64,000 bases of DNA from an uncultured Acidobacteriota bacterium (GCA_963800865.1 CAWDCL010000004.1:1935339-1999338), one strand, 5' to 3'. Positions 6,611 through 51,978 are shown, counted from the stretch's first letter. Translations and numbers: made by a program. The notes: a model not told the origin generated them from the sequence alone.

Positions 6611-9165
6611 GCGGTTCGATGCGATCGCGCAGGGGCGGGTACTGGATCCTCGCGACGGGGTGCGTGGTCGCGGGCCTGCTCGCGGGCTGCGGTGGCCGCC
6701 CGGCAACGCCGGCCGGGCCGGTCGATCTCGCCGCCGCACGAGCGCAGCTGGAGGCGGGTGACGCGCTGGGCGTCGTGGCCCTCCTGCGCGACCGCGCGGG
6801 CCAGGATCCCGAACGCGTCGAACTGCTGGCGGCAGCGTATGAAGCGATTCCCGGCGCGGACATCGAGGCCGCGGCCCGCCTGGCGCCGCTCGGCAACTCG
6901 AACGACCCGCGGCTCGTTCTCGTCGCGGCGCGCGCCGCGGTGCGATCCGACGGCCTCGCCGAAGCGGAGACGATGCTGAAGGGCCTGCTCGCGAAGCAGC
7001 CCGCCGCGGAAGAGGTGGCGATCGAGTACGCCAAGCTCCTCGGCCGCATGGGACGGCACGACGATGCGCTCCGGGTGCTCGAGCCGTTCACGCGCGACGA
7101 GCCCCGGATCCTCAACCTCCGCGGCTACTCCGAGCTCCTCGCCGGCCGGCCCGAGGCGGCGCGCGCGCTGCTCGAGCGCTCCGTGTCCGCGGCTCGCGCC
7201 GCGGGGCAGGAGTACGCGCCCGCGCTCTATCACCTCGGTCTCTACTTCCGCTGGAAGGGCGAGCCCGCCACGGCGCTCGACTACTTCCGGCGCGCCTGCG
7301 GCGCCAGCCCGTCGCTGCTCGGGGCGCATTACCAGTGGATGGCCACTGCCGAACAGCTGGGGCTGGCCGAGGACGCCGCGATCGCGCGCGGCGCCTTCGG
7401 GCGGATCTACAGGACGGCGTTGACCCGGGCCGGCGCATTCAAGGAGCCGAAGGTCCCCGCCCCGGAGGCCATCGATCGGACGACGAAGATCGAATCCCGA
7501 CCCGTCGCCGAGGGAACGTCCTTCCGCCGCCGCTTTCCGGCCGGGGTGTCGGTCGAGGTCGCCTGCCGCACTCCGGTCAAGGGGACGGCACGCTTCGTCG
7601 CGCGGATCGAGAGCGGTCCCGGCGCCGGCACGGTCCTGCTCGACGTCGTGCACGAGAGCGGCCCGGACGGCGAGAGCTGGATCCCGCACAACGTCGCGAT
7701 CCCGCCCGGCGCGGCCGGTGCCGAGGCCGAGCTGCTGTTCGAAATCCGTTCCACTGCGTGGCTCGCCGGGTGGCGCGGGCTCGCGCCGGCGGCCGGCTCC
7801 GCGTTCTCCGAACCGCAGAAGACCGCCGGTCCCGGGCCGCGGTCCGCCGATCCGCGCCCGAACGTGCTGCTGATCTCGCTCGACACGCTGCGCGCCGATC
7901 GGCTCGGGCGCTACGGCAACGATCGTACGACTTCGCCCGCGATCGACGCGCTGGCGAAGCAGGGCGTGAGCTTCGAGCGGGCCGAGGCTGCGTCGAGCTG
8001 GACCCTGCCGTCCCACTACTCGATCTTCTCCGGCCTCACCCCGGCGGCCCACGGCGTGCTGCCGGACCTCGAGGCGACCCGCGGCTTCATGTGGGCCGAC
8101 CGGATGGTCCAGCTCCGCGGCTCGGGACGCGAGGTGATGGTCACCGAGGCGTTCAAGGAAGCCGGGTACCGTACCGTCGGCGTGACGGAGAACGGCTGGC
8201 TGGCGGGCCGCTTCGGCTTCGGCCAGGGGTTCGACCTCTACCGTGCCGACATGCTCGGCAATCTCTGGCGGACCCTCGGCGCGACGATGGCCGAGCTCGA
8301 GGCCCACGGCGAGGGCGGGCCCTGGTTCCTGTTCGTGCACACCTACACCCCGCACCAGCCGTACCACGCGCCGCGGCCGTTTCGCCTGCGCTGGGCCGAC
8401 CCCGAGTCGGGCGGGCTCGCGTGGCCCGACGCGCTCGTGCCGATGGAGGAGTACCTGCGCTTCCGGGCCGAGGTCTTCCTGCCGGCTCCGTCCGACGTCC
8501 AGGCCTTCCGGGATCTCTACGACGGCCAGGTCGCCTGGTCCGATTCACTCGTCGAGCGGCTCGTCTCCTGGCTGGACCAGCGGGGTCTCGCCGAGCAGAC
8601 GATCGTGATCGTGCTTTCGGACCACGGCGAGGAGTTGTTCGAGCGCGGCGAGTTCGACCACATCAACTCACTGTACGAGGAAGTGACCCGTGTCCCGCTC
8701 GTCATCCGTGCGCCCGGCCGTGTGCCGGCCGGCCGCGTGGTGGCGGGCCCGGTGTCGTTGATCGACGTGCCGGCGACGATGCTCGACCTGGCCGGGCTGG
8801 GAGAACGGCTGGGGCTCGGGAGCTCGCTCCGCGCGGCCTGGGACCGGGGGGAGTCGCGCCCGGCTTTCGCCCAGACGATCGGTCTCCGGAGCGAGCCGGT
8901 GGAAGCGGTCTGGGACGGGTCGCTCAAATACCTGCGGCGCGAGCGGGCGGGTGGCCTCGCCGAGCTGCTGTTCGACCTGGCCCGCGATCCCGCCGAGAAG
9001 ACCGACATCGCCGCCTCTCGGCCCAACGACCTCGCGCGGCTGCGGGGGCTGCACGAGGCGCACATGCGGGAGGCCGCGACGATCCGCAAGGACCTCGGGA
9101 CGGTCGCCGAGCAACTCGACCCCGAGACCGTGGAGCGCCTGAAGAGCCTCGGCTACGCCCGGTAA
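6607..9165 (+). CDS. Lipoprotein with TPR repeats and a C-terminal sulfatase/alkaline-phosphatase-superfamily domain
   Basis: Lipobox LAGC; TPR-like helices; PNVLLISLDTLRAD, WTLPSH, HTYTPHQPY, SDHGEE, LFDLARDPAE and terminal LKSLGY. Start could be GTG 6607 or ATG 6619. Confidence 0.85.
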   Translation: MSGSMRSRRGGYWILATGCVVAGLLAGCGGRPATPAGPVDLAAARAQLEAGDALGVVALLRDRAGQDPERVELLAAAYEAIPGADIEAAARLAPLGNSNDPRLVLVAARAAVRSDGLAEAETMLKGLLAKQPAAEEVAIEYAKLLGRMGRHDDALRVLEPFTRDEPRILNLRGYSELLAGRPEAARALLERSVSAARAAGQEYAPALYHLGLYFRWKGEPATALDYFRRACGASPSLLGAHYQWMATAEQLGLAEDAAIARGAFGRIYRTALTRAGAFKEPKVPAPEAIDRTTKIESRPVAEGTSFRRRFPAGVSVEVACRTPVKGTARFVARIESGPGAGTVLLDVVHESGPDGESWIPHNVAIPPGAAGAEAELLFEIRSTAWLAGWRGLAPAAGSAFSEPQKTAGPGPRSADPRPNVLLISLDTLRADRLGRYGNDRTTSPAIDALAKQGVSFERAEAASSWTLPSHYSIFSGLTPAAHGVLPDLEATRGFMWADRMVQLRGSGREVMVTEAFKEAGYRTVGVTENGWLAGRFGFGQGFDLYRADMLGNLWRTLGATMAELEAHGEGGPWFLFVHTYTPHQPYHAPRPFRLRWADPESGGLAWPDALVPMEEYLRFRAEVFLPAPSDVQAFRDLYDGQVAWSDSLVERLVSWLDQRGLAEQTIVIVLSDHGEELFERGEFDHINSLYEEVTRVPLVIRAPGRVPAGRVVAGPVSLIDVPATMLDLAGLGERLGLGSSLRAAWDRGESRPAFAQTIGLRSEPVEAVWDGSLKYLRRERAGGLAELLFDLARDPAEKTDIAASRPNDLARLRGLHEAHMREAATIRKDLGTVAEQLDPETVERLKSLGYAR

Positions 9166-32653: not shown

Positions 32654-33520
32654 CTACGGGTGCCCCCAGCCCAGCTTGCTGCGCAGCACGCTGAAGAACG
32701 AGCGCCCGGGCCGGCGCACCAGGGTCGTTGAGAAGGCGGCGCGCTCGACCGTCACGCTCTCCCCGGGGAGGAGCGGGAACGCGACCTGGCCGTCCATCGT
32801 GACCTGCACCGTCGTTCCCGGGCGCCCCTCGGGCAGCACGACCCGGATCCGGGTCGATCCGGGCAGCACCAGCGGGCGCTGCGAGAGGGAGTGCGGGCAG
32901 ATCGGCGTGACGAGCAGGGCGTCGACCGAGGGGACGACCACCGGTCCGCCCGCCGACAGGCTGTAGGCGGTCGAGCCGGTCGGCGTCGACAGGATCAGGC
33001 CGTCGGCGCGGTAGTCGGTCACCCACTCGGCATCGATGTAGAGCGAGAGCGTGAACAGCCGCACCGCGCTCGAACTGGAGATCACGACGTCGTTCAGCGC
33101 CAGGTGCTGGTCGCGCGGCAGGTCGTCGTTGTGCGAGACCGCCAGCATTGGACGCCGCTCGAGCGGCGCCCGACCGGCGAGCGCGGCCGCCAGGACGTCG
33201 TCGATTTCATCGCAACGCAGCTCGGTGAGGAAACCGAGGTGCCCGAGGTTGATCCCGAGGATCGGCGTCTCGCGCGCCCCGATCGCGCGGGCCGAGGCGA
33301 GCAGCGTCCCGTCGCCCCCGATCACGACCGCGAGGTCGGCGCGCTGCGCCCCTTCCTCGCGCGACACGAACGACGTCAGCCCCAGCGTGCGGGCCGTGTC
33401 CTCGTCGGCGAGCGGCTCGCAGCCGAGCCGGTCGAGGCTCGAGAAGACGCGCCGCAGGACGGCCGGTGCGTCGGGGTGCGGCTTGCTGAAGACGGCGACC
33501 GCACGCTGGTCAGCTGGCAT
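32654..33520 (-). CDS. nadK: NAD kinase
   Basis: GGDGT, GINLGHLGFL, ALND, DGLILSTPTGSTAYSLSAGGP. Confidence 0.96.
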   Translation of the reverse strand: MPADQRAVAVFSKPHPDAPAVLRRVFSSLDRLGCEPLADEDTARTLGLTSFVSREEGAQRADLAVVIGGDGTLLASARAIGARETPILGINLGHLGFLTELRCDEIDDVLAAALAGRAPLERRPMLAVSHNDDLPRDQHLALNDVVISSSSAVRLFTLSLYIDAEWVTDYRADGLILSTPTGSTAYSLSAGGPVVVPSVDALLVTPICPHSLSQRPLVLPGSTRIRVVLPEGRPGTTVQVTMDGQVAFPLLPGESVTVERAAFSTTLVRRPGRSFFSVLRSKLGWGHP

Positions 33521-34325
33521 CGCGCCGGACCTCCTCGTCGACCAGCCTATCAAAGGCCGCCGCGCCGATCCCGGGGCCCCGCGCGGCGAGCAGGAAAACC
33601 TCGCGGTTTCCCTTGGGGCCGGCGACCCGCGAGGCCGCCACGGCGGCGGGCCCCCAGCCCCGTTCCTCGAGGAAGCGGCCCACGCGCACGACGGCCCGGC
33701 CGCGCAGCTCCGGATCGCGGACGACCCCGCCCCGGCCGACGAGCGGGGGCGAGAGCTCGAACTGCGGCTTGACCAGGAGGAGCAGCCGGCCTGCAGCCGC
33801 GAGGAGCGGCAGGACCGCCGGCAGGACGAGGGTCAGCGAGATGAAGGACAGGTCGGCCGTAGCGAGGTCGTAGGGGGGAGCGACCTGCCCCGCCGCGAGG
33901 TAGCGCGCATTGCAGTGCTCGACCACCAGGACCCGGGAGTCGGCGCGGAGCGCGGCGTCGAGCAGGCCGTGGCCGACATCGACCGCCGTGACGTGCGCCG
34001 CTCCGCGCCGCAGCAGGACGTCGGTGAAGCCGCCGGTCGAGGCCCCGAGATCGAGGCAGCGCCATCCGGCCGGGTCGAGGCCGAGCTGGTCGAGGGCCGG
34101 GGCCAGCTTGAGGCCGCCGCGCGAGGCGTAGAGCCGGTCTCCCTCCGTCAGGCCGAGTTCGGCGCCCGAAGGGACCGGTGTCCCCGGCTTGTCGCTGCGC
34201 CGCCCGTCCACGAGGACGCGGCCGGCGAGGACCAGCGCCTGGGCCTTCTCGCGGGAGGGGGCGAGCCCGGCCTCGACCAGCGCCAGGTCGAGGCGCCGCC
34301 GGGGAGGCCGGGGCGCCCCGCCCAT
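33510..34325 (-). CDS. tlyA: TlyA family rRNA 2'-O-methyltransferase
   Basis: S4 domain RLD..L; SRGGLKL, DLGASTGGFTD, LSFISL, VKPQFE, GPKGNRE. Confidence 0.95.
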   Translation of the reverse strand: MGGAPRPPRRRLDLALVEAGLAPSREKAQALVLAGRVLVDGRRSDKPGTPVPSGAELGLTEGDRLYASRGGLKLAPALDQLGLDPAGWRCLDLGASTGGFTDVLLRRGAAHVTAVDVGHGLLDAALRADSRVLVVEHCNARYLAAGQVAPPYDLATADLSFISLTLVLPAVLPLLAAAGRLLLLVKPQFELSPPLVGRGGVVRDPELRGRAVVRVGRFLEERGWGPAAVAASRVAGPKGNREVFLLAARGPGIGAAAFDRLVDEEVRRDAS

Positions 34326-35224
34326 CACCGGCTCCGGTCGACGGCCGCGCGCACGAGGGCGAGCAGCGGATCCGCCGCTGGACCGAGCGACGCCAGCCCG
34401 GCGAGGGCTTCGTCCCGCAGCGTGGCCGCGCGCTGCAGCGCGGCGTCGAGCCCGACCAGCGCCGGCCAGGTCGCCTTGCCCTGCGCGAGGTCCTTGCCCG
34501 CGGTCTTGCCGAGCTGCGCGGTGGACGCCGTCAGGTCGAGGATGTCGTCCTGGATCTGAAACGCCTCGCCGACCAGCGCTCCGCTCGCGACGAGCCGCGC
34601 GCGCAGTGATTCCGGGGCTGCGGCCGCGAGCGCGCCGAGCTCGAAGCAGGCGACCAGCAGCGCACCGGTCTTCATCCGATCGATCCGGGCGACGGCGTGC
34701 GCGTCGGCCGGCCGCCCGGCGGCGGCGAGGTCGAGCGCCTGGCCACCGGCCATCCCGGCCGGCCCGGCCGCGACCGCGAGCGCCACGACCTGCGCCGCGA
34801 TCGTCGCTCCCGGGACCGGACCGCGGGCGAGCACCTCGAACGCCCGGGTCTGCAGCGCGTCGCCGGCGAGGATCGCCATCGCTTCGCCGTAGACCTTGTG
34901 GGTCGTGGGGCGTCCGCGGCGCAGGTCGTCGTCGTCCATCGCCGGCAGGTCGTCGTGCGCGAGGCTGTAGGAGTGGATCATCTCGATCGCCACGGCCGCC
35001 GGCAGCGCCGTCTCGACCGCCCCGCCGCAGGCGCGGCAGGTGGCGAGCGTCAGCAGCGGGCGCAGCCGCTTCCCCCCGCCGAGGAGCGCGTAGCGCATCG
35101 CTTCGAGCAGTTCCGCGGCCGCACCCGCGAGTTCCTCCGGCGCGGCCAGGGCCTCCTCGAGCCCGCGCTCGACCTGCGCGCGCCAGGCGGCGAGCGTGTC
35201 GGTGTCGGGCCGGGCGGCACTCAC
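34325..35224 (-). CDS. ispA: Farnesyl/geranylgeranyl diphosphate synthase
   Basis: [43 protein letters not shown]. Confidence 0.95.
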
Positions 35225-35493
35225 GGCGATTCCGGGGGCGGTTCGAACGGCACGGCGACGGCCTCGCCCGTCGCGCTTCGAACGAGCGCCTCGACCTTCA
35301 GCTCCGCGGCCTGCAGCTGCGCCTCGAGCGCGCGCGCCAGCGTCACTCCCTCCTCGAACAGCGCCAGGCTCTCTTCCAGCGGCAGCTCGCCCTGTTCCAT
35401 CGCGCCGACGATCGCCTCGAGCCGTGCGAGGGAGCGTTCGAACCCCTTGTCGTCGCCGGCGGGCGGAGCCGCCGGCCCGGTCCTGTCGACCAT
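35221..35493 (-). CDS. xseB: Exodeoxyribonuclease VII small subunit
   Basis: [26 protein letters not shown]; strong AGGAGG SD. Confidence 0.93.
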
Positions 35494-35536
35494 GCCTCCT
35501 CCTCGCTTTCCCGGCCCCGGTCTGCCTCGGCCGGGG

Positions 35537-36946
35537 TCATTCATCCGCGCCGCCCGCCGCCGGCTCGCCGAGCGGACCGTCCACCGTTGCGGCGAATGCT
35601 CCCCGGGCCAGCCGCACGGCGACCCGCTCCCCGGGCGCGAGCGATGTCGCGTCGCGCACTACTGCCGCGGGCTGGCCGGACCGCGTGACGAGCGCGAAGC
35701 CGCGGGCCAGCACCGCCAGTGGCGACAGCGCGTCGAGCTGCGCCGCCAGCGCGCCGCACCGGCTGCGGCAGGCTGCGAGCCGCCGCCCCGCTGCGCCGCC
35801 CAGGGCGGCGCGGGCGACGGCGAGGCGGTGGCGCCGCGCCGCGAGCCGTGCGCGTTGCCCCTCGGGAGCCAGGCGCGCGGCGAGCGCGCCCAGCGCGCGG
35901 CGGCGGCGCTCGAGCACGGCCCGCTGCGCCAGTTCGAGGCGGTGTTCGAGATCGGCGGCGTGCGCCGCGAGCCGGCTCAGCGCCAACGGGACGGCCCCCA
36001 GGGCGCGGGCGCCGGCGAGCGGCGCGAGGCGGGCGCGGGCGCGGTCGATCCGGCGGCGCGCGGCCCGGGCCAGGCGCGACGCCCCGGAGGCGACGCGGGC
36101 CGCCAGCTCGACCTCGGCGCGCACCACGACCTCGGCCGCGGCCGAAGGGGTCGGAGCGCGCAGGTCGGCGGCGAAGTCGGCCAGCGTGGTGTCGATCTCG
36201 TGCCCGACGCCGGTCACTACCGGCGTGCGGCAGGCGACGATCGCGCGCACCACGCGCTCGTCGTCGAAGGCCGCCAGGTCCTCGCGCGCTCCGCCGCCGC
36301 GCACGACCAGCAGCAGGTCGAGGCCGCACGCGTCGGCCGCGGCGAGCGCGGCGGCGATCTCCTCGGGAGCCTTCGCCCCCTGCACGGTCGCCGGCACGAC
36401 CAGCACCTGCAGGCCCGAGACGCGGCGCGCCAGGACGCGCAGCACGTCGCGCAGCGCCGCGCCGTCGGCCGAGGTCACGACCCCGATCCGGCGGGCCAGC
36501 GCGGGCAGCGCCTGCTTCCGCCCGGCGTCGAACAGCCCCTCCGCGGCGAGCCGGGCCTTGAGCTGCTCGAAGGCCAGCGCGGCCGAGCCGGCCCCGACCG
36601 GCTCGAGCGCCGAGACCGCCAGCTGGAACCGGCCCTGGACCGCGTAGACCGAGGGGAGCGCGAGCGCGAGCACCTCGAGGCCGTCCCCGGGGGCGAAGCG
36701 GACGCGCAGGTTCTCGCGCCGGAACATCGCGCAGGAGATCGAGGCCCGCCCGTCGGTCAGCGAGAAGTACCAGTGCCCGGAGCCGTGGGCGACGAAGCGC
36801 ACGATCTCGCCCAGGACCCAGACCGGGCCGATTCCCTCGCGGAGCTGCGCGTCGGCCAGCTCGTTCAGCTGGGTGACGGTGAGCGGCGCGAGGCGCGAGC
36901 CGGGCAGGGGATCGTCACCGTCCGGCGAGTGCGCGCCGGGAAGCAT
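35537..36946 (-). CDS. xseA: Exodeoxyribonuclease VII large subunit
   Basis: [42 protein letters not shown]. Confidence 0.96.
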
Positions 36947-37734
36947 CAGGCGCCCCCGGCCCCGCGCGCGATCCGGCGCACCGCCGTCGCGCGGCCGCTC
37001 CCCTCGTCGATCTCGAACAGCGCGCCACGCAGGCCGGGCTCGGCGTCCGAGGGGTCGGCGTGGCCCGGCCGGCTGGTCAGGAAGCGGCGCAGGGCGGCGT
37101 CGCGCTGCATCCCGATCACGCCGCCGTACGGGCCGGTCATGCCGAGGTCGGTGATGAACCCGGTCCCTCCGGGAAGAACCCGGGCATCGGCGGTCTGGAC
37201 GTGGGTGTGGGTCCCGAACACCCCGGCGACGCGGCCGTCGAGGTAGGCGGCGAGCGCCAGCTTCTCCGACGACGCCTCGGCGTGGAAGTCGACGACGATC
37301 GCGTCGGCCCGGCCGGAGAGCTGTTCGAGGACGCGGTCCGCGGCGCGGAACGGATCGTCGACCGGCGGCATGAAGACGCGCCCCTGCAGGTTGACGACCG
37401 CGATCCGCAGGCCGGCCAGCGAAGGCGCGACGAGGAAGCCGCGGCCGGGGCAGGGCTCGGGGTAGTTGAACGGCCGCAGCAGGCGCGGCTCGCGCTCGAG
37501 CAGCTGGTCGTGCCCCTTCTGGGCCCAGACGTGGTTGCCGGAGGTCAGGCAGTCGGCGCCCGCCTCGAGCATCGCGCGCGCGCCGGCCGCGTCCACGCCG
37601 CGGCCGCCCTTGATGTTCTCGACGTTGATCACGACGAACGCCGCGTCGTGTTCCTCGCGCAGCCGCGGCAGCCACTGCGCCACCGCGCGCCGCCCGGTCT
37701 CCCCGAAGACATCCCCGATCGCGAGCAGGTTCAT
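36946..37734 (-). CDS. ymdB: YmdB-like (TIGR00282) metallophosphoesterase
   Basis: [40 protein letters not shown]; follows rny. Confidence 0.95.
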
Positions 37735-37752: not shown

Positions 37753-39315
37753 TCAGACCGCGTAGCTGACGGCGCGGGTCTCGCGGATCACGACGACACG
37801 GATCTGGCCGGGGTAGTCGACGGTCTTCTCGATCTCGAGGGCGAGGTTACGGGCCATGAGCAGCGCCTGCTCGTCGGTCGTCGCCTCGGCCCGCACGTGG
37901 ACCCGCAGCTCGCGGCCGGCGCGGACCGCGGTGGCGCGCTCGATCCCCTCGTGCGCGAGGGCCATCCGCTCGACCTCCTCCAGCCGGTCCATGTGGCGCT
38001 GCAGGTTGTCGTTCCGTGCGCCGGGTCGCGAGACGACGATCCGCCGGGCAGTGGCCAGCACGACCCCTTCCGGCGTACGTGGCGCATCGTTGGGCTGCGC
38101 CAGCAGGCGGATCGGGTGGGTCACCGCGGGCTGCTCGCCGAAGCGGGTCGCGAGGTCGGCGCTGGCGATCGCCGGGTGCTGCAGGAGCGGCACCTTGTCG
38201 GCGCGGGCGACGTCGTGGAGCAGGCCCGCGCGCCGCAGCGCGTCGCCGGACAGGCGCAGCTCGTCCCCCAGCTCGCCCGCGATCAGGGCCACCTCGCGCG
38301 CGCGCTGGAGCAGGCTCTGCCCGTGGTCGGTCACGAACGACAGCCGGCCGAGCAGGAGGACGAGGCGCTCGTGAAGGCCGGTCATCCCCAGTTCGAAGAT
38401 CACCGCCTCGCCCCGCTCGCGCGCCTCCTCGTCGGCCTCCGAGCGCGACTTCTCGACGACCTCCTCGATCCGTGCCGGGTGGATCCGGCCGTCCTCGACC
38501 AGCTTCTGCAGCGAGCGCGCGGCGATCGTGCGCCGCAGCGGGTCCCACGAGGAGAGCAGGATCGCGTGGGGCGTGTCGTCGACCAGGAAATCGACCCCGG
38601 TGGTGTGTTCGAGCGCGCGGATGTTGCGTCCCTCGCGCCCGATCACGCGTCCCTTCATCTCGTCGCTCGGCAGCTCGACGAGGGAGATCGTCCCCTCGAC
38701 GGTGACCGCCCCGCGGACCGACGCCATCGCGCGCAGCACCAGCTCGCGCGCGCGCTCGTCCGCGGCAAGGCGGGCGCTCTCCTCGGAGCGGGCGACATGG
38801 CGAGCGACCTCGCCCGTGAGCTCCCGCTCGAGGGTGGCGATCAGGCGCTCCCTGGCCTCGTCGGCGGAGAGCCCGGCCACTTCCTCGAGCCGGCTACGGA
38901 TCTGGTCCTCGCTGCCGGCGATCCGCGCCTCCCGCTCGTCGAGCCGCGTCGAGCGGGCGTCGAGGGCGCCGGCGCGCTCGGCCATCTCCTCGGCCTTCGC
39001 GTCGAGCGTCGCGCCGCGCTCCTCCAGCTTGTGACGGCGGTCGGCCAGCTCGGCGGACCGGCGCGTGACCTCCTCGTCCTTGCGGGTGGCCTCGGCCTCG
39101 CGTTGGGCGATCCGCTCGCGGAGCCGTCGCTCCTCGTCGACCACCCGCCGGCGGACCTGTTCCTCCACCCGGCGCTCGAGTTCGAGCTCGAGCTGGGTGA
39201 GCCGCTCGATCTGCTGCGAGAGCTGGCGCGAGCGCCGCGCGGCCAGGATCGCCAGCACGGCGACGGCGACCACGAGGGCCGCGTCGAGGATGCCAAGCCA
39301 GAGCAACGGGTTCAT
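37753..39315 (-). CDS. rny: Ribonuclease Y homolog with a degenerate HD domain
   Basis: N-terminal TM, long coiled coil, KH motif LPSDEMKGRVIGREGRNIR, DGRIHPARIEE, RAGLLHD, C-terminal YPGQIRVVVIRETRA. Confidence 0.93.
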   Translation of the reverse strand: MNPLLWLGILDAALVVAVAVLAILAARRSRQLSQQIERLTQLELELERRVEEQVRRRVVDEERRLRERIAQREAEATRKDEEVTRRSAELADRRHKLEERGATLDAKAEEMAERAGALDARSTRLDEREARIAGSEDQIRSRLEEVAGLSADEARERLIATLERELTGEVARHVARSEESARLAADERARELVLRAMASVRGAVTVEGTISLVELPSDEMKGRVIGREGRNIRALEHTTGVDFLVDDTPHAILLSSWDPLRRTIAARSLQKLVEDGRIHPARIEEVVEKSRSEADEEARERGEAVIFELGMTGLHERLVLLLGRLSFVTDHGQSLLQRAREVALIAGELGDELRLSGDALRRAGLLHDVARADKVPLLQHPAIASADLATRFGEQPAVTHPIRLLAQPNDAPRTPEGVVLATARRIVVSRPGARNDNLQRHMDRLEEVERMALAHEGIERATAVRAGRELRVHVRAEATTDEQALLMARNLALEIEKTVDYPGQIRVVVIRETRAVSYAV

Positions 39316-39340: not shown

Positions 39341-39546
39341 GTGACCGGCAGATCGGGACGGTGGGCGGATGCGGGATTGATGCCTGGAGGACCAGGTGGG
39401 TGCCCTCCCGCGGGCTTAGGCTTCCTTCGAACGCGGCGCGCAAGGCGCCGAGAAGGCCTGCACACCCTCCGCGGAGTCCGGGCTCCCGAGGTGGTGCTGT
39501 TGGCTCAAGCGCGATCCGCCGGCACGCAATCCTGACCTGCCGGACC
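39341..39546 (-). ncRNA. ssrS: 6S RNA
   Basis: Lies between zapA and rny (canonical). Terminal stem ccggcaggtcagga/tcccgatctgccgg; 6S-like motifs cttgagccaac...gggagc...ggaagccta...gggcacccacctgg; has its own promoter. Ends approximate. Confidence 0.85.
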
Positions 39547-39600: not shown

Positions 39601-39942
39601 TCAGCCGCGCGGTTCGTCGACCGGTTCGATCGCGGCGGCGAGCTGCAGCAGGCTCTCCTCGAGCCGCCGCGCGCGCTGCCCGACCGCCCGGGCGCGGGTC
39701 AGCCAGGCCTCGCGCCGCTCCTCGTGTTCCGACGCGAGGTTGAGCGCGGCGAGCACCGCGACCTTGAAGTCGTCGCGCAGCCCCGACGCGCCCGCCACCT
39801 CGGCCAGCGCGTCGTCGACGCGGGCGGCCAGGGCGCGCAGCAGCGCCGGGTCCTCGCCGCGGAGCCGGTAGAGCCGGCCGGCGAGTTCGACCTCGACCAC
39901 CTGCGCCGCCGGCCGTGCGGGCGGAATTCCGTTCTCCGGCAT
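39601..39942 (-). CDS. zapA: Cell division protein ZapA
   Basis: VEVELAGRLYRL, LAARVD, VAVLAALNLA; GGAGG SD and TATAAT upstream; synteny with 6S/rny. Confidence 0.9.
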   Translation of the reverse strand: MPENGIPPARPAAQVVEVELAGRLYRLRGEDPALLRALAARVDDALAEVAGASGLRDDFKVAVLAALNLASEHEERREAWLTRARAVGQRARRLEESLLQLAAAIEPVDEPRG

Positions 39943-39967: not shown

Positions 39968-40017
39968 ATTATACGGGGTCGGGGGGCGAGCCCGGGGCCG
40001 GGGATCGAGGATACAAT
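39968..40017. promoter_or_regulatory. Divergent -10 elements for zapA (TATAAT, minus) and pheS (TACAAT, plus)
   Basis: attata at 39968-39973 and tacaat at 40012-40017 in the short divergent gap. Confidence 0.55.
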
Positions 40018-40051
40018 CCGCCGTTCTGCGCGGCAGGCGCGGGAGGTCGGC

Positions 40052-41587
40052 GTGGGCGCGGTCTTGCGCGAAGTGGAAGTGCGGGTGCTGGAGGCCCTTC
40101 CGCCGGAGCGGGAGGCGATCGGGGTCGAGGACCTGGCGCGCGCCCTGGAGCTCGACCAGAGCCCGGTGGCGGGCGCGGTCGCGACCCTCGCGGAACGCGG
40201 CCTGGTGACCGTCCTCGAGGAGTCCGAGGACGAGTACCGCGTCGGTGCCAAGGCGGCCGCCTGGCAGGGGGCCGTCTTCCCGGAGCGGCGAGTCGCGCGA
40301 GCCCTGGTGGCGGCGGGCGGCGAGGCCGACATCCCGGCGCTCGCCGCGGCCTCGGGGCTGTCGGCGAAGGAGGTCGGCGAGTCGCTGCGCTGGCTGACCC
40401 AGCGCGGGTGGGCCGCCAAGGACGGGGCGCGGCTGCGCGCGACGGAGGCCTGGACCGGCACGGAGCCCGCGGCGGAGCCCGACGAGCGCCTGCTGCAGTT
40501 CCTCGTCGAGCACGGGCCCGCGCGCCGGGATGCGGTGCTGGCCGCCGGCGAGGCGCTCGACGCCGCGCTCGAGCGGCTGGCCGCGCGGGCCGGGGTCGTC
40601 GAGCGCCGCGAGCGGCGCCGGCGGCTGGTCGCGATGACCGTTGACGGCGCGGCGCTCCGGGCGGGAGGGGTCGAGTCCCGCCGCGAAGTCAACGAGCTGA
40701 CCACCGAGCTGCTGGTGTCGGGACGCTGGCGCGAGGCCGAGTTCCGCGCGTACGACGTCAGCCTGCCCGGTCCCGCGCTGGTCCCGGGCAAGGAACACCC
40801 GTTCCGGCGGATCCTCCACGAGACCCGGCGGGTCTTCCTCGAGATGGGGTTCGAGGAGACGAAGAGCCCGTGGGTCGAGTCGGCGTTCTGGGACTTCGAC
40901 GCCCTGTTCCAGCCGCAGGACCACCCGGCGCGCGACATGCAGGACACTTTCTACGTGGCGCGTCCGGAGCGCGCAGCGCTGCCCGATCCCGCGCTGGTCG
41001 AGCGCGTGCGCCGCACCCACGAGGACGGCGGCGACACCGGCTCGATCGGTTGGCGGACGCGGTGGGACCCGGCGCTGGCCGAGCGCTGCGTGCTGCGCAC
41101 GCACACGACGGCTGCGACCGCGCGCGCGCTTTACGCCGACCCCCGGCCGCCGCGCCGCATCTTCTCGGTCGGCCCGGTCTTCCGGCGCGAGACGATCGAC
41201 TACAAGCACCTGCCGGTCTTCCACCAGGTCGACGGGATCGTGATCGACGCCAACGCGTCGTTCGCGATGCTGCTGACGCTCCTGGCGACCTTCTACCGGA
41301 AGATGGGGTTCCCGCGGATCCAGTTCCGGCCCGCCTTCTTCCCCTACACCGAGCCGTCGGTCGAGGTCTTCGTCTACCTCGAGTCGCGCCGGGACTGGGT
41401 CGAGATGGGCGGGGCCGGGATCTTCCGGCCCGAGGTCACCGAGCCGCTCGGCTGCACCGCGCCGGTGCTGGCCTGGGGTCTCGGCCTCGAGCGGGTGGCG
41501 ATGTTCCGCTTCGGCCTGTCGGACATCCGCGAGATCTACCTCGCCCACCTCGAGTGGCTCAAGGAGACGCCGCTGTGCCGATCCTAG
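40052..41587 (+). CDS. pheS: Phenylalanine--tRNA ligase alpha subunit, archaeal/eukaryotic type
   Basis: 511 aa with N-terminal wHTH-like domains; LTTELLVSGRW, FWDFDALFQPQDHPARDMQDTFY, LRTHTT, FRRETIDYKHL, FFPYTEPS, GAGIFRPEV, AWGLGLER. Confidence 0.95.
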   Translation: MGAVLREVEVRVLEALPPEREAIGVEDLARALELDQSPVAGAVATLAERGLVTVLEESEDEYRVGAKAAAWQGAVFPERRVARALVAAGGEADIPALAAASGLSAKEVGESLRWLTQRGWAAKDGARLRATEAWTGTEPAAEPDERLLQFLVEHGPARRDAVLAAGEALDAALERLAARAGVVERRERRRRLVAMTVDGAALRAGGVESRREVNELTTELLVSGRWREAEFRAYDVSLPGPALVPGKEHPFRRILHETRRVFLEMGFEETKSPWVESAFWDFDALFQPQDHPARDMQDTFYVARPERAALPDPALVERVRRTHEDGGDTGSIGWRTRWDPALAERCVLRTHTTAATARALYADPRPPRRIFSVGPVFRRETIDYKHLPVFHQVDGIVIDANASFAMLLTLLATFYRKMGFPRIQFRPAFFPYTEPSVEVFVYLESRRDWVEMGGAGIFRPEVTEPLGCTAPVLAWGLGLERVAMFRFGLSDIREIYLAHLEWLKETPLCRS

Positions 41588-43396
41588 GGATCCCGCTCGA
41601 CGAGCTCTTCGCGCGCTTCGGCGCGACCATCGAGCCCGCCGAGCTCGAGCACCAGCTGCACCGCTTCGGCTGCTCGGTCGAGGGCTGGGCGACCGCCTAC
41701 CGCTGGCGCTGTCCCTCGTGCGGCACGCTCTCCGAAGGGGGCGAGGACGCGGCGCCGCCGCCGGCCTGCGAGGGCTGCGGGGCCGACCTGCGCTCCGCCG
41801 CCACGCCCGCGGCGCCGGCCGGCCAGGTCCAGGTGCTGCGGATGGAACTGCTCGCCGTGCGGCCCGACCTGTTCGGCCCGGAGGGGCTGGCGCGCGGGCT
41901 GCGGGGCTTCCTGCGCCGCGAGTCGGGCGCGCCGCGCTACCGGGTCGAGCCCGGGACCTTCACGGTCGACGTGGACCCCGCGCTGGCGGGGCCGGGCGTG
42001 CACCGCCCCCGGATCGTGGCCGCGATCGTGCGCGGGCTGACGCTCGACGACGCGCGGCTGCGCGGCCTGATGAAGCTGCAGGAGAACGTCCACTGGGCGC
42101 TGGGCCGCGACCGCAAGCTGGCCTCGATCGGCGTCTACGACCTGGCGACCGTCGCCGGTCCCGCGCTCTCGTACCGCGCGGTCGAGCTGGACGGCGTGCG
42201 CTTCGTGCCGCTGGGTTTCGATCCGGCGCAGCCGCACGCCGCGCTGACGCCGCGCGAGATCCTGCAGAAGCACCCCAAGGGGACCGCCTACGCCTGGCTG
42301 CTGGAAGGGAACACCAGGGCCCCGCTGCTGGCCGACGCGAAGGGGGGCGTGCTGTCGATGCCCCCGATCATCAACAGCGAGGCGACGCGCGTCACGACCG
42401 CGACGAAGGACGTCGTGATCGACGTCACGGGATTGGCCGACCGCCACATCGACAAGGCGCTGGCGATGGTCGTCACCAGCCTGCTCGAGGCCTGCCCGGA
42501 CGCGCACGCCGAGACGGTCACGGTCCGCTACGCGGACGGGACGCGCGTCACGCCCGACCTCGCGCCGCACGAGGTCGTCCTCGATCCGGTCGCCGCCGGC
42601 CGGTTGATCGGCGTGGCGTGGACCGCCGACGAAGTCGCCGAGCTGCTGCGCTTCATGCGCCACGATGCGTCGGTGGCCGACGGCCAGGTGCGCGTGCTGG
42701 TCCCGGCCTGGCGCTCGGACATCCTGCACCCGCGCGACCTGGTCGAGGACGCGGCGATCGCTCACGGCTACGACCGGATCCCGGCCGTCGGCCTGGCGGC
42801 GGCGACGATCGGCCTGCCCGAGCCGCGCGAGGAGGACGCCGCGCGGGCGCGCGTGGCGCTCGCCGGGATGGGCTTCCTCGAGGTCATGACGCTCGCGCTG
42901 ACCTCGGAGGAGGCGACCTACCGCAAGACCGGACTGCCCGACGACGACCGCCAGGTCAGGATCGAGAACCCGATCTCGATCGAGCAGACGATGGTCCGGG
43001 TCTCGGTCGTGCCGGGACTGCTGGAGACGCTGGCGATCAACCTCGGGCCACCCGTACCCGCAGCGGATCTTCGAGGTCGGTCTCGTGGTGCACGCCGACG
43101 CGTCGCGCGAGACCGGCGCGGCGGAGACGATGGTCGCCGGCTGCGCGCTGGCGGGCGACGGGTTCGGCTACGCCGACGTGCGCTCCACGGTCGACGCGCT
43201 GCTGCGCGAGACCGGGCGCGACGCCGGCGGGACCAACTTCCGCGCGCTGGACTGGCCGCTCTTCATCCCGGGCCGCGGGGCCGAGATCCTCGATGGGGCG
43301 GGGGAGCGGATCGGGGTCGTGGGCGAGGTCCACCCCGAGGTGCTGACGCGCTACCGGATGATCCACCCGGTCGCGCTCGCCGAGATCACCCTCTAG
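41575..43396 (+). CDS. pheT: Phenylalanine--tRNA ligase beta subunit, archaeal type (apparent +1 frameshift near 43045)
   Basis: RPDL..PEGLAR, KLQENVH..LGRDRK.ASIG.YD, VLSMPPIINS, R.DILHPRDLVED.AI..GY. The HPYPQRIFEVG and FIPGR/GEVHP C-terminus is in the next frame. Confidence 0.9.
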
Positions 43397-44534
43397 GCGC
43401 GCCGCGCACCGCGTAGATCAGCAGCCGGGCCTCGATCCCGCTGATCGTCAACGGGATCCGGCGCTCGGCCTTGAACCCGAGGTGCCGGGTGATCGCGGCG
43501 TTTCCGGACAGCGCGGCGAGCGTCCAGCCCGCGAGCCGTTGCCGCGCCAGCGTTCCGAGTCCGCGCCACGCGCCGGCGGCCTCGTCGGCCAGCCGCAGCC
43601 CCCACGGCGGGTTGGTCAGGACGAGGCCCGGGCCGTCCGGCGGCTCGACCGTCTCGATCTCGGCGCATTCGAGCTCGACGTGGCGCCCGAGTCCCTGGCG
43701 CTCGAGCGCGGCGCGCGCCTCCGCCAGCGCGCGCGGGTTGCGGTCCGAGGCGAGGAACGGGGCGTGCAGGGGAATCCGCTCGGGACGCAGTTCGCGGGCG
43801 ATCGCCTCGAGCGGGAGGCTCGCGAACGGAAGCAGGGCCGAGACGGCCAGCGAATCCGGCGGTCGCTGCGGCGGGATCCCGAGCGCAAGCGCCGCCGCTT
43901 CGGCGACCAGGGTTCCCGTTCCGCAGAACGGGTCGAGCAGCGGGCGCTCGGGATCGACGCCGGCCAGCAGGGCGATCCCCGCCGCGACGTCTTCCCGCAG
44001 CGGCGCGACCCCCTGGCGTCCGGTCCCCCGCGCGTGGAGGCTGTGGCCTCCGAGGTCGATCCCGGCCGACGCGGCGCCGCGCTCGAGCCGGAAGTCGACC
44101 AGGATCCGCGCCCCGCGCGGGTCGACCGGCGGGGCCGCCAGGCCGCGCGCGGCAAAGCGGTCGCGAATCGAGTCCTTGACCAGCCGCGCGGTGTGGAGCG
44201 GCGAGCGCAACTCCTCCGTGGTGCCGGTGACGCGGACGGCCCAGGCGACCTCGCGCGGCAGCCACTCCTCCCAGGCGATCCGGGTCAACTCGGGCTGAAA
44301 CCCCTCGGCTTCCTCGGGGAGCCCCGTCGCGAGTTCCAGGATCACGCGCGGCGCCGAGCGCAGCCCGAGCGTCAGCCGCGCCCCCAGCAGCAGGTCGCCC
44401 GGCACGCGCACCGCGCCCCGCGCCGCGGACAGCGGCTCGGGGCCGCCGAGACGGCGCACCTCGTCCGCCACCGCCGGCTCGAGGCCGGCGGTCACGGCGA
44501 GGCGGAAGACGAGAGGGGCCGCCGTAACGCTCAG
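43386..44534 (-). CDS. THUMP-domain RNA methyltransferase (RlmL-like, single MTase domain)
   Basis: [36 protein letters not shown]. Start codon uncertain (CTG 44534 or GTG 44495). Confidence 0.85.
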
Positions 44535-44884
44535 GCGAGCGCGGCGCGCGCCTTGTCGACGAGCTGCGTGAAGGTCTGCGGCTGCTGCAGCGCCAGGTCG
44601 GCCAGAACGCGCCGATCGAGCTCGATGCCGGCCCTCTTCAACCCGTCGATGAAGCGGCTGTAGGAGATCCCGTTGGCGCGCGAGGCGGCGCCGATGCGGG
44701 TGATCCACAGCGCGCGGAAATGGCGCTTCTTCTGCTTGCGCCCGGCGTAGGCGAAGAGCAGGGAACGATCGACCTGCAGCTTCGCGATCCGGTAGCAGTT
44801 GTGCTTCGAGAGGTAGTAGCCCTTGGCACGGGCCAGGATCTTGCGCCGGCGGTCGCGCCGGTTGGTACCCCGTTTCACGCGCAT
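44531..44884 (-). CDS. rplT: 50S ribosomal protein L20
   Basis: [33 protein letters not shown]...[13 protein letters not shown]. Confidence 0.97.
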
Positions 44885-44959: not shown

Positions 44960-45164
44960 TCAGGGGCGCCCGTAGGGGAGCATCCCGATGAAGTTCTTCT
45001 CGTCGGCCTTGCGAGATGAACGTCTCGGTGTCCAGGTGGCGGCGCCGCTTGCTGTCCTTCTTGGTGAGGATGTGGCTCTTGTTGGCCTTCGAGCGCTTGA
45101 GCTTTCCGTTGGCGGTGATCCGGATTCGCTTGGCGGCTCCCCGGTGGGTCTTCATCTTCGGCAT
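44960..45164 (-). CDS. rpmI: 50S ribosomal protein L35 (apparent 1-nt insertion near 45012)
   Basis: [13 protein letters not shown]...HILTKK; the canonical tail [14 protein letters not shown] lies in the +1 frame and stops at 44960. Confidence 0.92.
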
Positions 45165-45197: not shown

Positions 45198-47138
<1,941 letters not shown>

Positions 47139-47271: not shown

Positions 47272-47346
47272 TGGTAGGCGCGGGCGGTTTCGAACCGCCG
47301 ACCTCTACCGTGTCAAGGTAGCGCTCTCCCACTGAGCTACGCGCCT
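47272..47346 (-). tRNA. tRNA-Val(GAC)
   Basis: aggcgcgtagctcagtgggagagcgctaccttGACacggtagaggtcggcggttcgaaaccgcccgcgcctacca: cloverleaf, TTC loop, encoded CCA. Confidence 0.97.
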
Positions 47347-49924: not shown

Positions 49925-51978
49925 CCGGCCCGCCGGTGCGCCGGCGTTCCTGGTCTCGCGCGCCGTCCGGCGCCGGGCGCACGAGGTCGCGATCGGCGAC
50001 GTGATCGTCGGCGGGCGGCACCCGATCGCGGTCCAGTCGATGACCACGACCCGCACCGCGGACGCCGCGGCCACCGCCGCCCAGGTCGCCGCGCTGGCGC
50101 GCGCCGGCTGCGCGATCGTGCGCGTGACGGTCCCCTCCAAGCCGGACGCCGAGGCGCTCCCGGAGATCCGGCGGATCCTGGCGCAGGAAGGGGTGACGGT
50201 CCCGCTCGTCGCGGACATCCACTTCACGCCGAACCTCGCGCTCGCCGTGGTCGACCTGGTCGAGAAGGTGCGGGTCAATCCCGGGAACTTCGCCGACCGC
50301 AAGAGCCTGAAGGGCGAGGCCTACGACGACGCGCGCTGGGAGCAGGACGTGCAGCGCCTCTACGAGCTCTTCGCGCCGCTCGTCGACCGCGCGCGGGAGC
50401 GCGGCGTGGCGCTGCGGATCGGCACCAACCACGGCTCGCTCTCGGACCGGATCGTGCACCGCTTCGGCGACAGCCCGCTGGGGATGGTCGAGTCGGCGCT
50501 GGAGTTCGTCCGGATCGCGGAGGACCGCGGCTTCGACCGGATCGTGATCTCGATGAAGGCCAGCAACCCGCAGGTCATGGTGCGCGCCTACCGGCTGCTG
50601 GTGGACCGCCTCGACCGCGAGCACCGGCCGTACCCGCTGCACCTCGGCGTGACCGAGGCCGGGGGCGGCGACGAGGGTCGGATCAAGTCGTCGGCCGGGA
50701 TCGCGACGCTGCTGGCCGACGGGCTGGGCGACACCGTGCGGGTCTCGCTCACCGAAGACCCGGTCAACGAGGTGCCGGTGGCGCGGGAGCTGGTCCGGCA
50801 GTTCGGACTGGGCGGGACTCTGCCCGGAGCGGACGTTGAGACGACGGGTCCGCTCGAGCGCGGCGGGAATCCTCCGGTCGAAGTCGTCGAGACGCGGGAC
50901 CCGCTCGACCCGGTGCGGCGCCCCGCGGCGCGGATCGAGGCCGGTCCGATGGCGTTTGGCGGCGACGAAGTGCCGCGCGTCGAGCTGGTCGGTCGCGGCG
51001 GGCGGGGCGCGCGAGGCGGCGGCCCTGCTGGCGCTGCGGCCGCCGGTCGAGGTGGTCGACGTGCCGGTCGCGGACGCTGCCGGGCTCGACGCCGCCGTCG
51101 CGTTCCTCGCGCAGTTTCCGGCGGGGGTGGTGACGCGCTCGCTCACGCTGGAGAACGCGCAGGCGCGTGCCGCGGCCTTCGCGCGCCGCGCGGCGTGGGC
51201 CTCCAGGGTCGACCGGCTCACCCTCGTGGTGGGTGAGGACGAGTCATTCGGCGCATCCCTCGCAGCGACCGGCGGCCTGCCCGTCCTCGTGCTGCTGCGC
51301 ACGGACGGCGCGCCGGGCGCCGCGGGGACCGAAGCGATCGCGCGCTTTGCGTCGGCCGTCGCCGGCCTCGCCCCGGGCGTGATGGCCGGATTGCAGCTTG
51401 GAGAGCGCGCTGCGCCGATCGAGTCCAATCGCCTGCTGGCCGCGTGCCTCGACCGGGCCGGCTCGCGGGCGCCGATCGTGCTCGGCGATCGACCGTCTGC
51501 GGCCGGCGACGACCGCCGGGTCGGCGTCGCGGGGCGGCTCGGCTCGCTGCTGCTGGACGGGATCGGCGACGCGGTGCGGCTCCCCGCGGGGCCCGACGCG
51601 GCGGCGACGGCGAAGCTCCTGCACGACGTGCTGCAGGCCGCGCGCCGGCGGCTCGAGCGCGCCGACTACATTGCCTGCCCGTCGTGCGGGCGGACGCTCT
51701 TCGAGCTCGAGGAGACGACCGAGCGGGTGCGGCAGCTGACCGCGCACCTGAAGCTGAAGATCGCGGTGATGGGGTGCGTCGTGAACGGGCCGGGCGAGAT
51801 GGCCGATGCCGACTTCGGCTACGTCGGGTGGGGCGCGGGGAAGGTGGCGCTCTTCGTCGGCCGCGAGCTGGTCGAGCGTGACGTGCCGTCGGCCGAGGCG
51901 CCGCAGAAGCTGGTCGACCTGATCCGCTCGCGGGGGCGCTGGACCGACCCGGAACCCGCGCCGGAAACCGCTCCGTAG
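49914..51978 (+). CDS. ispG: HMBPP synthase IspG, long form with insert domain (apparent +1 frameshift near 50988)
   Basis: [48 protein letters not shown] in frame 1; [27 protein letters not shown] in the next frame. Confidence 0.92.

Follow-up and report, generated by a model that had tools for sequence, protein, structure and literature searches.

Archaeal-type phenylalanyl-tRNA synthetase genes and the probable replacement of bacterial pheST in one order of Acidobacteriota

How did an essential gene pair of archaeal type come to stand, inverted, where related bacteria keep their own version? The question is raised by a 64,000-nucleotide stretch of DNA from an uncultured Acidobacteriota bacterium (GCA_963800865.1 CAWDCL010000004.1:1935339-1999338), hereafter the window. 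Here pheS and pheT, the genes for the alpha and beta subunits of phenylalanyl-tRNA synthetase (PheRS), lie between the rplT and zapA genes on the strand opposite to both. A preliminary description of the window took the pair for an old, xenologous replacement in situ. In this study, I examined the type of the enzyme, its copy number, its chromosomal position and its relatives. It is highly probable that an archaeal-type pheST replaced the native bacterial pheST in the ancestor of the order to which this bacterium belongs, that it came from another bacterium, and that it took the ancestral slot on the opposite strand.

Type and copy number of the enzyme

The pheS gene starts with the GTG codon at 40052, and its product matches NF003210, the archaeal-type model PRK04172, over nearly its full length (536.5 bits, cut-off 350; residues 5-509 aligned to positions 4-494 of the 496 in the profile). 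At the N-terminus, the Pfam families HTH_IclR (33.3 bits, residues 11-53) and TrmB (30.8 bits, residues 5-63) were found, all winged-helix matches, including a MarR-type one, being confined to residues 5-63. The class II core PF01409 follows at residues 234-505 (289.8 bits). A full-length NF003210 match together with an N-terminal winged-helix extension in a protein of about 500 residues marks the archaeal/eukaryal-type alpha subunit. The open reading frame (ORF), the Pfam matches and the presence of the motif FWDFDALFQPQDHPAR all agree with the preliminary description, which gave PheS as 511 residues with winged helix-turn-helix-like N-terminal domains and this motif. The closest relative is 90% identical across 100% of the 511 residues. 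Among solved structures, the best match of PheS is the alpha chain of human cytosolic PheRS, 3L4G (280.6 bits, query residues 177-510), while bacterial alpha chains score about 135-142 bits.

A GTG codon at 41575 opens the pheT gene, whose first 13 nucleotides are shared with the end of pheS. As assembled, it falls into two frames, a break that is treated below. Even the N-terminal part of PheT alone passes the archaeal model TIGR00471 (pheT_arch; 350.7 bits, cut-off 282.65), and with 85.8 bits PheT stays well under the cut-off of 402.65 for TIGR00472 (pheT_bact), so that it does not qualify as a bacterial-type beta subunit. The intact relative P0129, 91% identical, scores 422.6 bits and 110.9 bits with the same two models. 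At E <= 0.01, the only domains found in PheT were B3_4, B5 and PF17759; neither the tRNA_bind domain (OB, B2) nor FDX-ACB (B8) was found in either piece at that threshold. The best solved match is the beta chain of 3L4G (220.8 bits, query residues 78-605), followed by the P. horikoshii fragment 2CXI (185.6 bits), while the best-scoring bacterial beta chains reach 64-69 bits.

Thus, the enzyme encoded by pheST is of the archaeal/eukaryal type. Its domain set is the same as in human cytosolic PheRS and 2CXI, apart from an N-terminus with four cysteines that lies outside the match. With the bacterial PheRSs of T. thermophilus (1PYS/1B70) and E. coli (3PCO) it shares the reaction, the class II core, B3/4, B5 and the catalytic-like module; unlike them, it has neither FDX-ACB nor OB, and its scores with them are much weaker. 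The lack of the OB tRNA-binding and FDX anticodon domains and the archaeal/eukaryotic rather than bacterial architecture had been recognised in the preliminary description, and both hold, NF003210 and TIGR00471 being passed and pheT_bact failed. Standard models already name the types of pheS and pheT correctly.

Does the cell keep a bacterial PheRS elsewhere? The genome assembly is 4.91 Mb in 5 contigs, 96.27% complete with 1.34% contamination, and the contig of the window is at least 3.27 Mb long. In the whole genome there are one match of PF01409, one of B5 and a split pair of PF17759, and at 96.27% completeness there are no matches of FDX-ACB (PF03147). The pheS and pheT genes of the window are the cell's only PheRS genes, as the preliminary description had expected in predicting no bacterial-type copy. 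FDX-ACB is likewise found in none of the 23 genomes of the order, while all 18 sampled class-mates (members of the same class outside the order) have it.

A metagenome-type assembly with 1.34% contamination might in principle have joined archaeal-type genes of another organism to this genome by a binning or assembly chimera. Against this, pheST lies inside the contig of at least 3.27 Mb with native genes on both sides, seven other genomes of the order have the same arrangement, and the G+C content at third codon positions (GC3) of pheST, 0.955-0.98, is on par with that of the flanking genes in a window of 74% G+C. I regard the chance of such a chimera as negligible. The named close homologues come from metagenome-assembled genomes (MAGs) of Acidobacteriota.

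The pair would form an (alpha-beta)2 enzyme, the sole PheRS of the cell, in which alpha consists of the winged-helix domains and the class II core, and beta of B1, the B3/4 editing domain, B5 and a catalytic-like module, with no OB (B2) or FDX-ACB. Judging from homology to 3L4G and from general knowledge of PheRS, alpha would activate phenylalanine and transfer it to tRNA-Phe, beta would supply the B3/4 editing site, and the tRNA would be bound via the N-terminal domains of alpha, not via the bacterial B8. In an alignment of 11 bacterial PheTs from several phyla, many columns do not vary, and a tRNA-Phe(GAA) gene is present in the genome. Together with the sole copy, these features indirectly suggest that the PheRS is functional, with aminoacylation and editing as predicted activities.

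Did the tRNA change together with the enzyme? The tRNA-Phe(GAA) of the order has U20, G34-A35-A36 and A73, like ordinary bacteria, and is 96% identical to that of G033, a class-mate of family f11 with the bacterial enzyme. At positions 26 and 45, it differs from most class-mates and resembles families f2 and f11. Co-evolution of the tRNA was considered and set aside: with the bacterial-like identity elements and the 96% identity to G033, no identity switch is seen. Given this near-identity to the tRNA of a species that has the bacterial enzyme, the bacterial-looking tRNA-Phe of the order appears to have been left unchanged by the enzyme swap, with no change of identity elements, and the archaeal-type pair would be charging it.

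The ancestral slot of pheST

Seven loci of class-mates from six other families have thrS-rpmI-rplT-pheS-pheT-zapA on one strand, with a bacterial-type pheST. The infC gene lies between thrS and rpmI in six of the seven, and a zapA homologue lies between pheT and the position of the 6S RNA gene in all seven. In six, rny and ymdB follow after zapA; neither was detected in the seventh locus, L027. Rfam scans of six of these loci showed the 6S RNA in each of them and, likewise in each, a tRNA heading the cluster. Read along the minus strand, the window has tRNA-Val, thrS, rpmI, rplT and a methyltransferase gene, then pheT-pheS on the plus strand, and then zapA, 6S, rny and ymdB. The co-directional order thrS-infC-rpmI-rplT-pheS-pheT-zapA-6S-rny, given as ancestral in the preliminary description, is borne out by the seven class-mate loci, with infC and rny each in six of them. 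In the window's order, infC lies outside the thrS-rpmI-rplT cluster, as it does in the class-mate G030; here the same contig has it at a distance of about 228 kb (G000:C4:2207015-2207518, L161).

In eight genomes of the order (G000, G003, G004, G008, G009, G011, G017 and the L038 record), the archaeal-type pair and the methyltransferase gene beside rplT converge. In seven of the eight, pheST is divergent from zapA; in the eighth, G011, the fetched stretch covers the rplT side only. The comparison of synteny in sister taxa thus sets a co-directional bacterial pheST in seven class-mates against an inverted archaeal-type pair in eight genomes of the order. In the window, the methyltransferase gene and pheT overlap by 11 nucleotides at their 3' ends. 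This gene occurs in 23/23 genomes of the order and in 1/18 class-mates (33% identity). If L027 (genome G034) is left out, the tallies are 6/6 for the class-mate loci, 17/17 for FDX-ACB and 1/17 for the methyltransferase.

Foreign affinity of the pair, absence of the native copy and flanks kept on both sides are found together, as in xenologous displacement in situ. 'In situ' is meant here as a position. The replacement proposed in the preliminary description is supported in this positional sense by the trees, the loss of the native copy and the flanks, and not as a statement of mechanism. The order of events could have been an insertion beside the native operon and then the loss of the latter, or a single recombination. 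Xenologous gene displacement in situ is said to have been described by Omelchenko and colleagues in 2003. The present case is like that concept in that a foreign essential gene occupies the native spot in a conserved array from which the native copy is gone; it is unlike it in that the pair lies on the opposite strand with an extra gene, outside the rplT transcription unit. An essential gene swapped by horizontal transfer is an event of a known kind; this instance is clean and old, not unprecedented.

Could the position be a coincidence? The pair might have landed anywhere, the native pair might have been lost, and later rearrangement or chance might have brought about the placement between rplT and zapA. 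The region has indeed been rearranged: the pair is inverted, the methyltransferase gene (in some genera with more genes) separates it from rplT, and infC has left the cluster. Besides, in four further lineages of Acidobacteriota the archaeal type lies apart from rplT and thrS, as it does in most other phyla. On the other hand, the rplT flank and the zapA-6S-rny-ymdB flank are both kept exactly in the eight genomes of the order examined, and the archaeal type also stands directly after rplT in eight loci of Planctomycetota (L094, L097, L100, L103, L108, L111, L115 and L116), where it is co-directional after thrS-rpmI-rplT. By a rough estimate, which is not a computed test, a random insertion would hit either operon junction in about 1 of 2,000 cases (about 4,500 genes). 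A coincidental position is therefore improbable, and occupation of the ancestral slot is preferred.

The methyltransferase gene was considered as a passenger transferred together with pheST. It has the same order-restricted pattern, yet it lies beside pheST in none of the loci of other phyla among the best 80 of the relative search described below. Three of five genomes resembling candidate donors have copies of it, 33-41% identical, outside the fetched pheST loci.

Distribution and origin of the pair

How old is the replacement? An archaeal-type pheT was called present by TIGR00471 at E <= 1e-60, a threshold at which, among 14 control genomes, only the 4 archaea were positive. It was found in 23/23 species, from 12 genera, of the window's order, which consists of a single family. 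In the class, 23 of 119 genomes are positive, all of them from this order, and 0/96 in the 18 other families. In an even sample of the phylum, 10/401 are positive, five belonging to the order and the other five to four further families. From 23/23 in the order and 0/96 elsewhere in the class, parsimony suggests that the replacement happened once, on the order's stem, and the swap would be placed in the common ancestor of this single family of Acidobacteriota. The age claimed in the preliminary description fits the 23 species in 12 genera and the GC3 of 0.955-0.98, like that of the neighbours. The trait provides a clean, datable marker for one acidobacterial order, and the locus is a well-documented case in which an essential translation gene was exchanged where it stands in the chromosome. 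Marker sets that expect pheT_bact would probably score the order as missing a marker.

In a FastTree phylogeny of 85 PheT rows, the 79 bacterial rows group together to the exclusion of the archaea (support 100). Within this clade, the order forms one of its own on a long stem, again with support 100. When about 150 representatives from a search of 1.84 billion proteins were added, the bacterial clade (44 rows) had support 99; the named proteins of about 550 residues around it are archaeal (Nitrososphaerota, Methanomassiliicoccaceae, Euryarchaeota, Bathyarchaeota/Thermococci). A quick IQ-TREE tree of 41 PheT rows under LG+C20 agrees with the bacterial clade. The tree of PheS, with four bacterial-type sequences from class-mates as its root, is congruent with those of PheT, and its bacterial clade has support 92. 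In it, a branch of length 1.29 (support 100) parts the PheS of the window from these bacterial-type sequences, the outcome that the preliminary description had anticipated for a PheS/PheT phylogeny. Since the trees of the two subunits are congruent, both subunits appear to have moved together. The trees were made without the classical Treponema and Borrelia sequences; a single-cell genome of Spirochaetota is included and carries the Cys4 insert described next.

The B1 region of the window's PheT contains a zinc-ribbon-like insert in which Cys46, 49, 65 and 68 are invariant in 11/11 aligned bacterial PheTs. The motif occurs in 79/85 bacterial PheT rows, one genome being represented twice among these rows, and in 0/5 archaeal rows; a Hadarchaeota PheT likewise lacks it. 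The match to the human PheRS beta chain begins at residue 78 and leaves residues 1-77, with the insert, uncovered. By the insert and its position in the trees, the PheT of the window belongs to a bacterial branch informally called 'zinc-ribbon' here, for which no published name was found, zinc binding being putative.

Was the donor a bacterium or an archaeon? The nearest sequences outside the order come from Myxococcota-type MAGs, with 58-59% identity in PheS and 52-53% in the N-terminal part of PheT. The values for Hadarchaeota are 42% and 40-44%, and other archaea are lower for PheS. A homologue search with the PheT of Hadarchaeota gave named matches that were Hadarchaeota-like save for one labelled Hodarchaeaceae, besides two subsurface-metagenome entries; for archaeal diversity, it was superseded by the representative search. 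Since both subunits are nested in the bacterial clade, PheT carries the Cys4 insert, and identity to bacteria is higher, the donor was most probably another bacterium with an enzyme of the 'zinc-ribbon' branch, not directly an archaeon. A 'Myxococcota-like donor' is a hint given by the highest identity only.

A direct transfer from archaea into the ancestor of the order, as proposed for spirochaetes, would fit an enzyme that curated models assign to the archaeal/eukaryal type. Direct transfers also seem to occur in the phylum: the acidobacterial lineage of G128 groups with Nitrososphaerota or Thermofilaceae and has no Cys4 insert. This is very unlikely to be what happened here, as both proteins of the window lie inside the bacterial clade (support 99-100 for PheT and 92 for PheS), separate from all archaeal rows, the insert of that clade is present in the window and missing in 5/5 archaeal loci, and identity to bacterial relatives exceeds that to archaea. 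In G128 itself (L034/L159), PheS and PheT are on long branches and may be a separate direct archaeal acquisition, to which a long-branch warning applies.

The other positive acidobacterial lineages are scattered: two stand beside a small group of Planctomycetota that includes Ca. Uabimicrobium, two lie within a Pirellulales group, and G128 is with the archaea. A single acidobacterial clade was rejected by the approximately unbiased (AU) test (log-likelihood difference 337.9, p-AU 0.006), a result weakened by the fact that the tested group was named after the first tree had been seen. It appears that other Acidobacteriota acquired the archaeal type independently.

Some points weigh against a replacement by a bacterial gene pair in the ancestral slot as reconstructed above. 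The sister of the order is a polytomy in the IQ-TREE tree or a metagenome protein with support 92 in the enlarged PheT tree, and no donor phylum can be named from it. As for the PheT trees, either they have no root or the root rests on few archaea, and the composition of several rows, the window's included, is deviant. Other genera have further genes in the interval from pheT to the methyltransferase gene: one for a sigma-54 activator in G009, and those for an M16 peptidase and SRAP in G008, where the gap measures 3.9 kb, as it does in G017. This leaves the ancestral layout of the insert uncertain. The adjacency of methyltransferase and pheST is absent from the loci of other phyla among those best 80, and co-transfer of the two is unproven.

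How does the case compare with the bacterial example known so far? Passages of Andam and Gogarten 2011 (PMC3191353) report an archaeal-type PheRS in Spirochaetaceae (Spirochaeta, Borrelia, Treponema), a replacement that marks one clade while sister families retain the bacterial form, and place the spirochaete enzyme beside Thermococcales. To the extent of these passages, the two cases are alike in that the replacement defines one clade whose sister families are bacterial in type, and in the size of the subunits (alpha about 510 residues and beta under 620, the bacterial form having about 340 and 800). They differ in that the enzyme of the window belongs to a separate large bacterial clade with the Cys4 insert; on slot and orientation, these passages are silent. 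In the main texts of the full-text literature, supplements aside, only the spirochaete case was found, and no account of a wide bacterial distribution or of this order.

A relative search gave at least 600 matching stretches, and in at least 524 of them a relative of the query is encoded; the best 80 were listed by source. These stem from Acidobacteriota, Myxococcota, Vulcanimicrobiota/Eremiobacterota, Eisenbacteria, Planctomycetota, Nitrospinota, WOR-3 and Fibrobacterota, and also from the Spirochaetota single-cell genome, MAGs labelled Proteobacteria or Actinomycetes, and five archaea. With at least 524 stretches from species-representative genomes in roughly ten phyla, the window adds to the evidence that archaeal-type PheRS is wide among bacteria. 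The statement in the preliminary description that the bacterial occurrence is best known from spirochaetes agrees with the literature; the type itself is far wider, in about ten phyla. One might go further and tentatively propose that the archaeal-type PheRS of bacteria, instead of being a few imports from archaea, represents one old, undescribed bacterial lineage with the Cys4 insert that passes from phylum to phylum, displaces the canonical enzyme and prefers the rplT-pheST junction. On this view the pair, inverted here and co-directional in Pirellulales-type Planctomycetota, would point to a displacement anchored on the ribosomal-protein flank and not to random insertion, but I consider this generalisation rather doubtful.

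The frame break in pheT and the flanking features

One frame of pheT runs up to 43047, and the next frame runs from 43049 to the TAG at 43394-43396. At the break, the window reads AAC CTC GGG CCA CCC, where the proteins of relatives have LAINLGHPYPQ. The PheT of relatives across the break is LAINLGHPYPQRI, and the window has one surplus base in the GGGC at 43045-48. With this base skipped, the read-through protein has 606 residues and no internal gaps compared with the 606-residue relatives P0126 and P0129; the read-through began at 41584, which leaves only the first three PheT residues unmatched. The length of about 606 residues in the preliminary description is thus right if one base is skipped, and it does not correspond to one open frame as assembled. 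PF17759 is divided at the break into profile positions 7-91 and 106-214. The gene call of the genome itself, P0125, has 613 residues with an out-of-frame tail; the public call for pheT has a wrong C-terminus because of single-base insertions in the assembly. As assembled, the frame is interrupted, which was judged an assembly error and not counted against the type.

Is the frameshift real? The surplus base does stand in the assembled sequence, and the gene call runs on in the wrong frame; one might imagine a mutation that inactivated the gene recently, or programmed +1 frameshifting. However, this is the sole pheT of the genome, and the cell should not survive its inactivation. In a blastn comparison with four genomes of the same genus (G001, G002, G003 and G004), only this genome has the insertion, and all four contigs covering 43044-48, from three public runs of related strains, have one base fewer; a fourth run, X4, gives no cover there. 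Private, uncompensated 1-nucleotide insertions also occur near 45012 in rpmI and near 50990 in ispG, within 8 kb, and in both genes the conserved protein carries on in the next frame past the insertion. For rpmI, five loci were compared, a second G002 locus ending before the site. A systematic assembly error fits better than three lesions in essential genes. The CTC-GGG-CCA context is not known as a frameshift site, which counts against programmed frameshifting. What tells on the other side is that the best public run holds 0.54 of the sampled words and that the extra base was judged by comparison with related strains. Given the private insertion, its absence from the four contigs of three runs, the insertions in rpmI and ispG and the single copy of pheT, the break is almost certainly an assembly error with no biology behind it, and a real frameshift is very hard to credit.

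Similar breaks are seen elsewhere in the genus. The few-contig genomes G003 and G004 have frame breaks at other places in pheS, pheT, rpmI, carA and the methyltransferase gene. Their loci L028 (G003) and L029/L037 (G004) have several, with rny among the genes hit, which resembles uncorrected indel error. In this stretch of the window, single-base insertion errors seem to occur about once per few kb. The same-genus comparison was used here, as gene calling by GC3 and counts of frame switches across the window proved too noisy for a frameshift rate.

The features of the region are collected in Table 1.

Table 1. Features around pheST, numbered from the first nucleotide of the window
Feature	Position	Strand	Evidence
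tRNA-Val(GAC), head of the cluster	47272..47346	-	ARAGORN, Rfam
thrS	45198..47138	-	Pfam tRNA-synt_2b, HGTP_anticodon, tRNA_SAD, TGS
rpmI (L35), broken by a private 1-nt insertion near 45012; end approximate	44960..45164	-	PF01632, 76.3 bits
rplT (L20)	44531..44884	-	ORF translation; tblastn, 54-58% identity to class-mates
UPF0020 RNA methyltransferase gene, like the N-terminal half of RlmL; start approximate	43386..44420	-	PF01170, 91.1 bits
pheT, archaeal/eukaryal-type beta subunit; two frames as assembled, 606 aa with one base skipped	41575..43396	+	TIGR00471, Pfam
1-nt insertion (GGG run then C) shifting the pheT frame, probable assembly error	43045..43048	+	comparison with relatives
CxxC-x15-CxxC zinc-ribbon-like insert in PheT B1 region, Cys46/49/65/68 (residues 46-68)	41710..41778	+	alignment
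pheS, archaeal/eukaryal-type alpha subunit, intact	40052..41587	+	511-aa ORF, translation, profile matches
Upstream of pheS: -10-like GATACAAT (40010-17), Shine-Dalgarno-like GGGAGG (40041-46)	40010..40046	+	sequence; putative function
zapA, divergent from pheS	39601..39942	-	PF05164, 47.3 bits, cut-off 23.8
6S RNA (ssrS), partial: model positions 36-151 of 187	39377..39508	-	RF00013, 49.6 bits, gathering 46.4
rny (RNase Y); start approximate	37753..39285	-	TIGR03319, 445.5 bits (cut-off 454.35, just missed); Pfam RNase_Y_N, KH, HD
ymdB-like phosphoesterase	36946..37734	-	PF13277, 315.2 bits

The 109-bp spacer between pheS and zapA has TACAAT at 40012-40017 directed toward pheS and TATAAT at 39973-39968 (minus strand) directed toward zapA. 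A consensus promoter scan called no full sigma-70 site in the spacer for either gene; its one site lies ahead of the 6S RNA gene, at 39580-39552 on the minus strand. Rfam found no known RNA leader upstream of pheS. The preliminary description had placed pheST on the opposite strand between rplT and zapA-6S-rny with its own -10 element; the placement and the TACAAT are there, and no full promoter was called. The pair may be transcribed from its own promoter region, divergently from zapA.

The gap between rplT and pheT holds the methyltransferase gene, which the preliminary description had left unmentioned. Its product scores 172.5 bits with NF008748 and 62 bits with Trm14, an archaeal tRNA m2G6 model, both below the cut-offs. 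In the order (the window, and L017 at 6952-7078), the 6S RNA matches only model positions 36-151 with about 50 bits, its terminal stem being divergent or shortened, and the six class-mate loci have full-length matches of 58-98 bits. At 33042-37246 of the window, the two long plus-strand ORFs compared with Pfam have no match, and the GC3 periodicity suggests genes on the minus strand instead.

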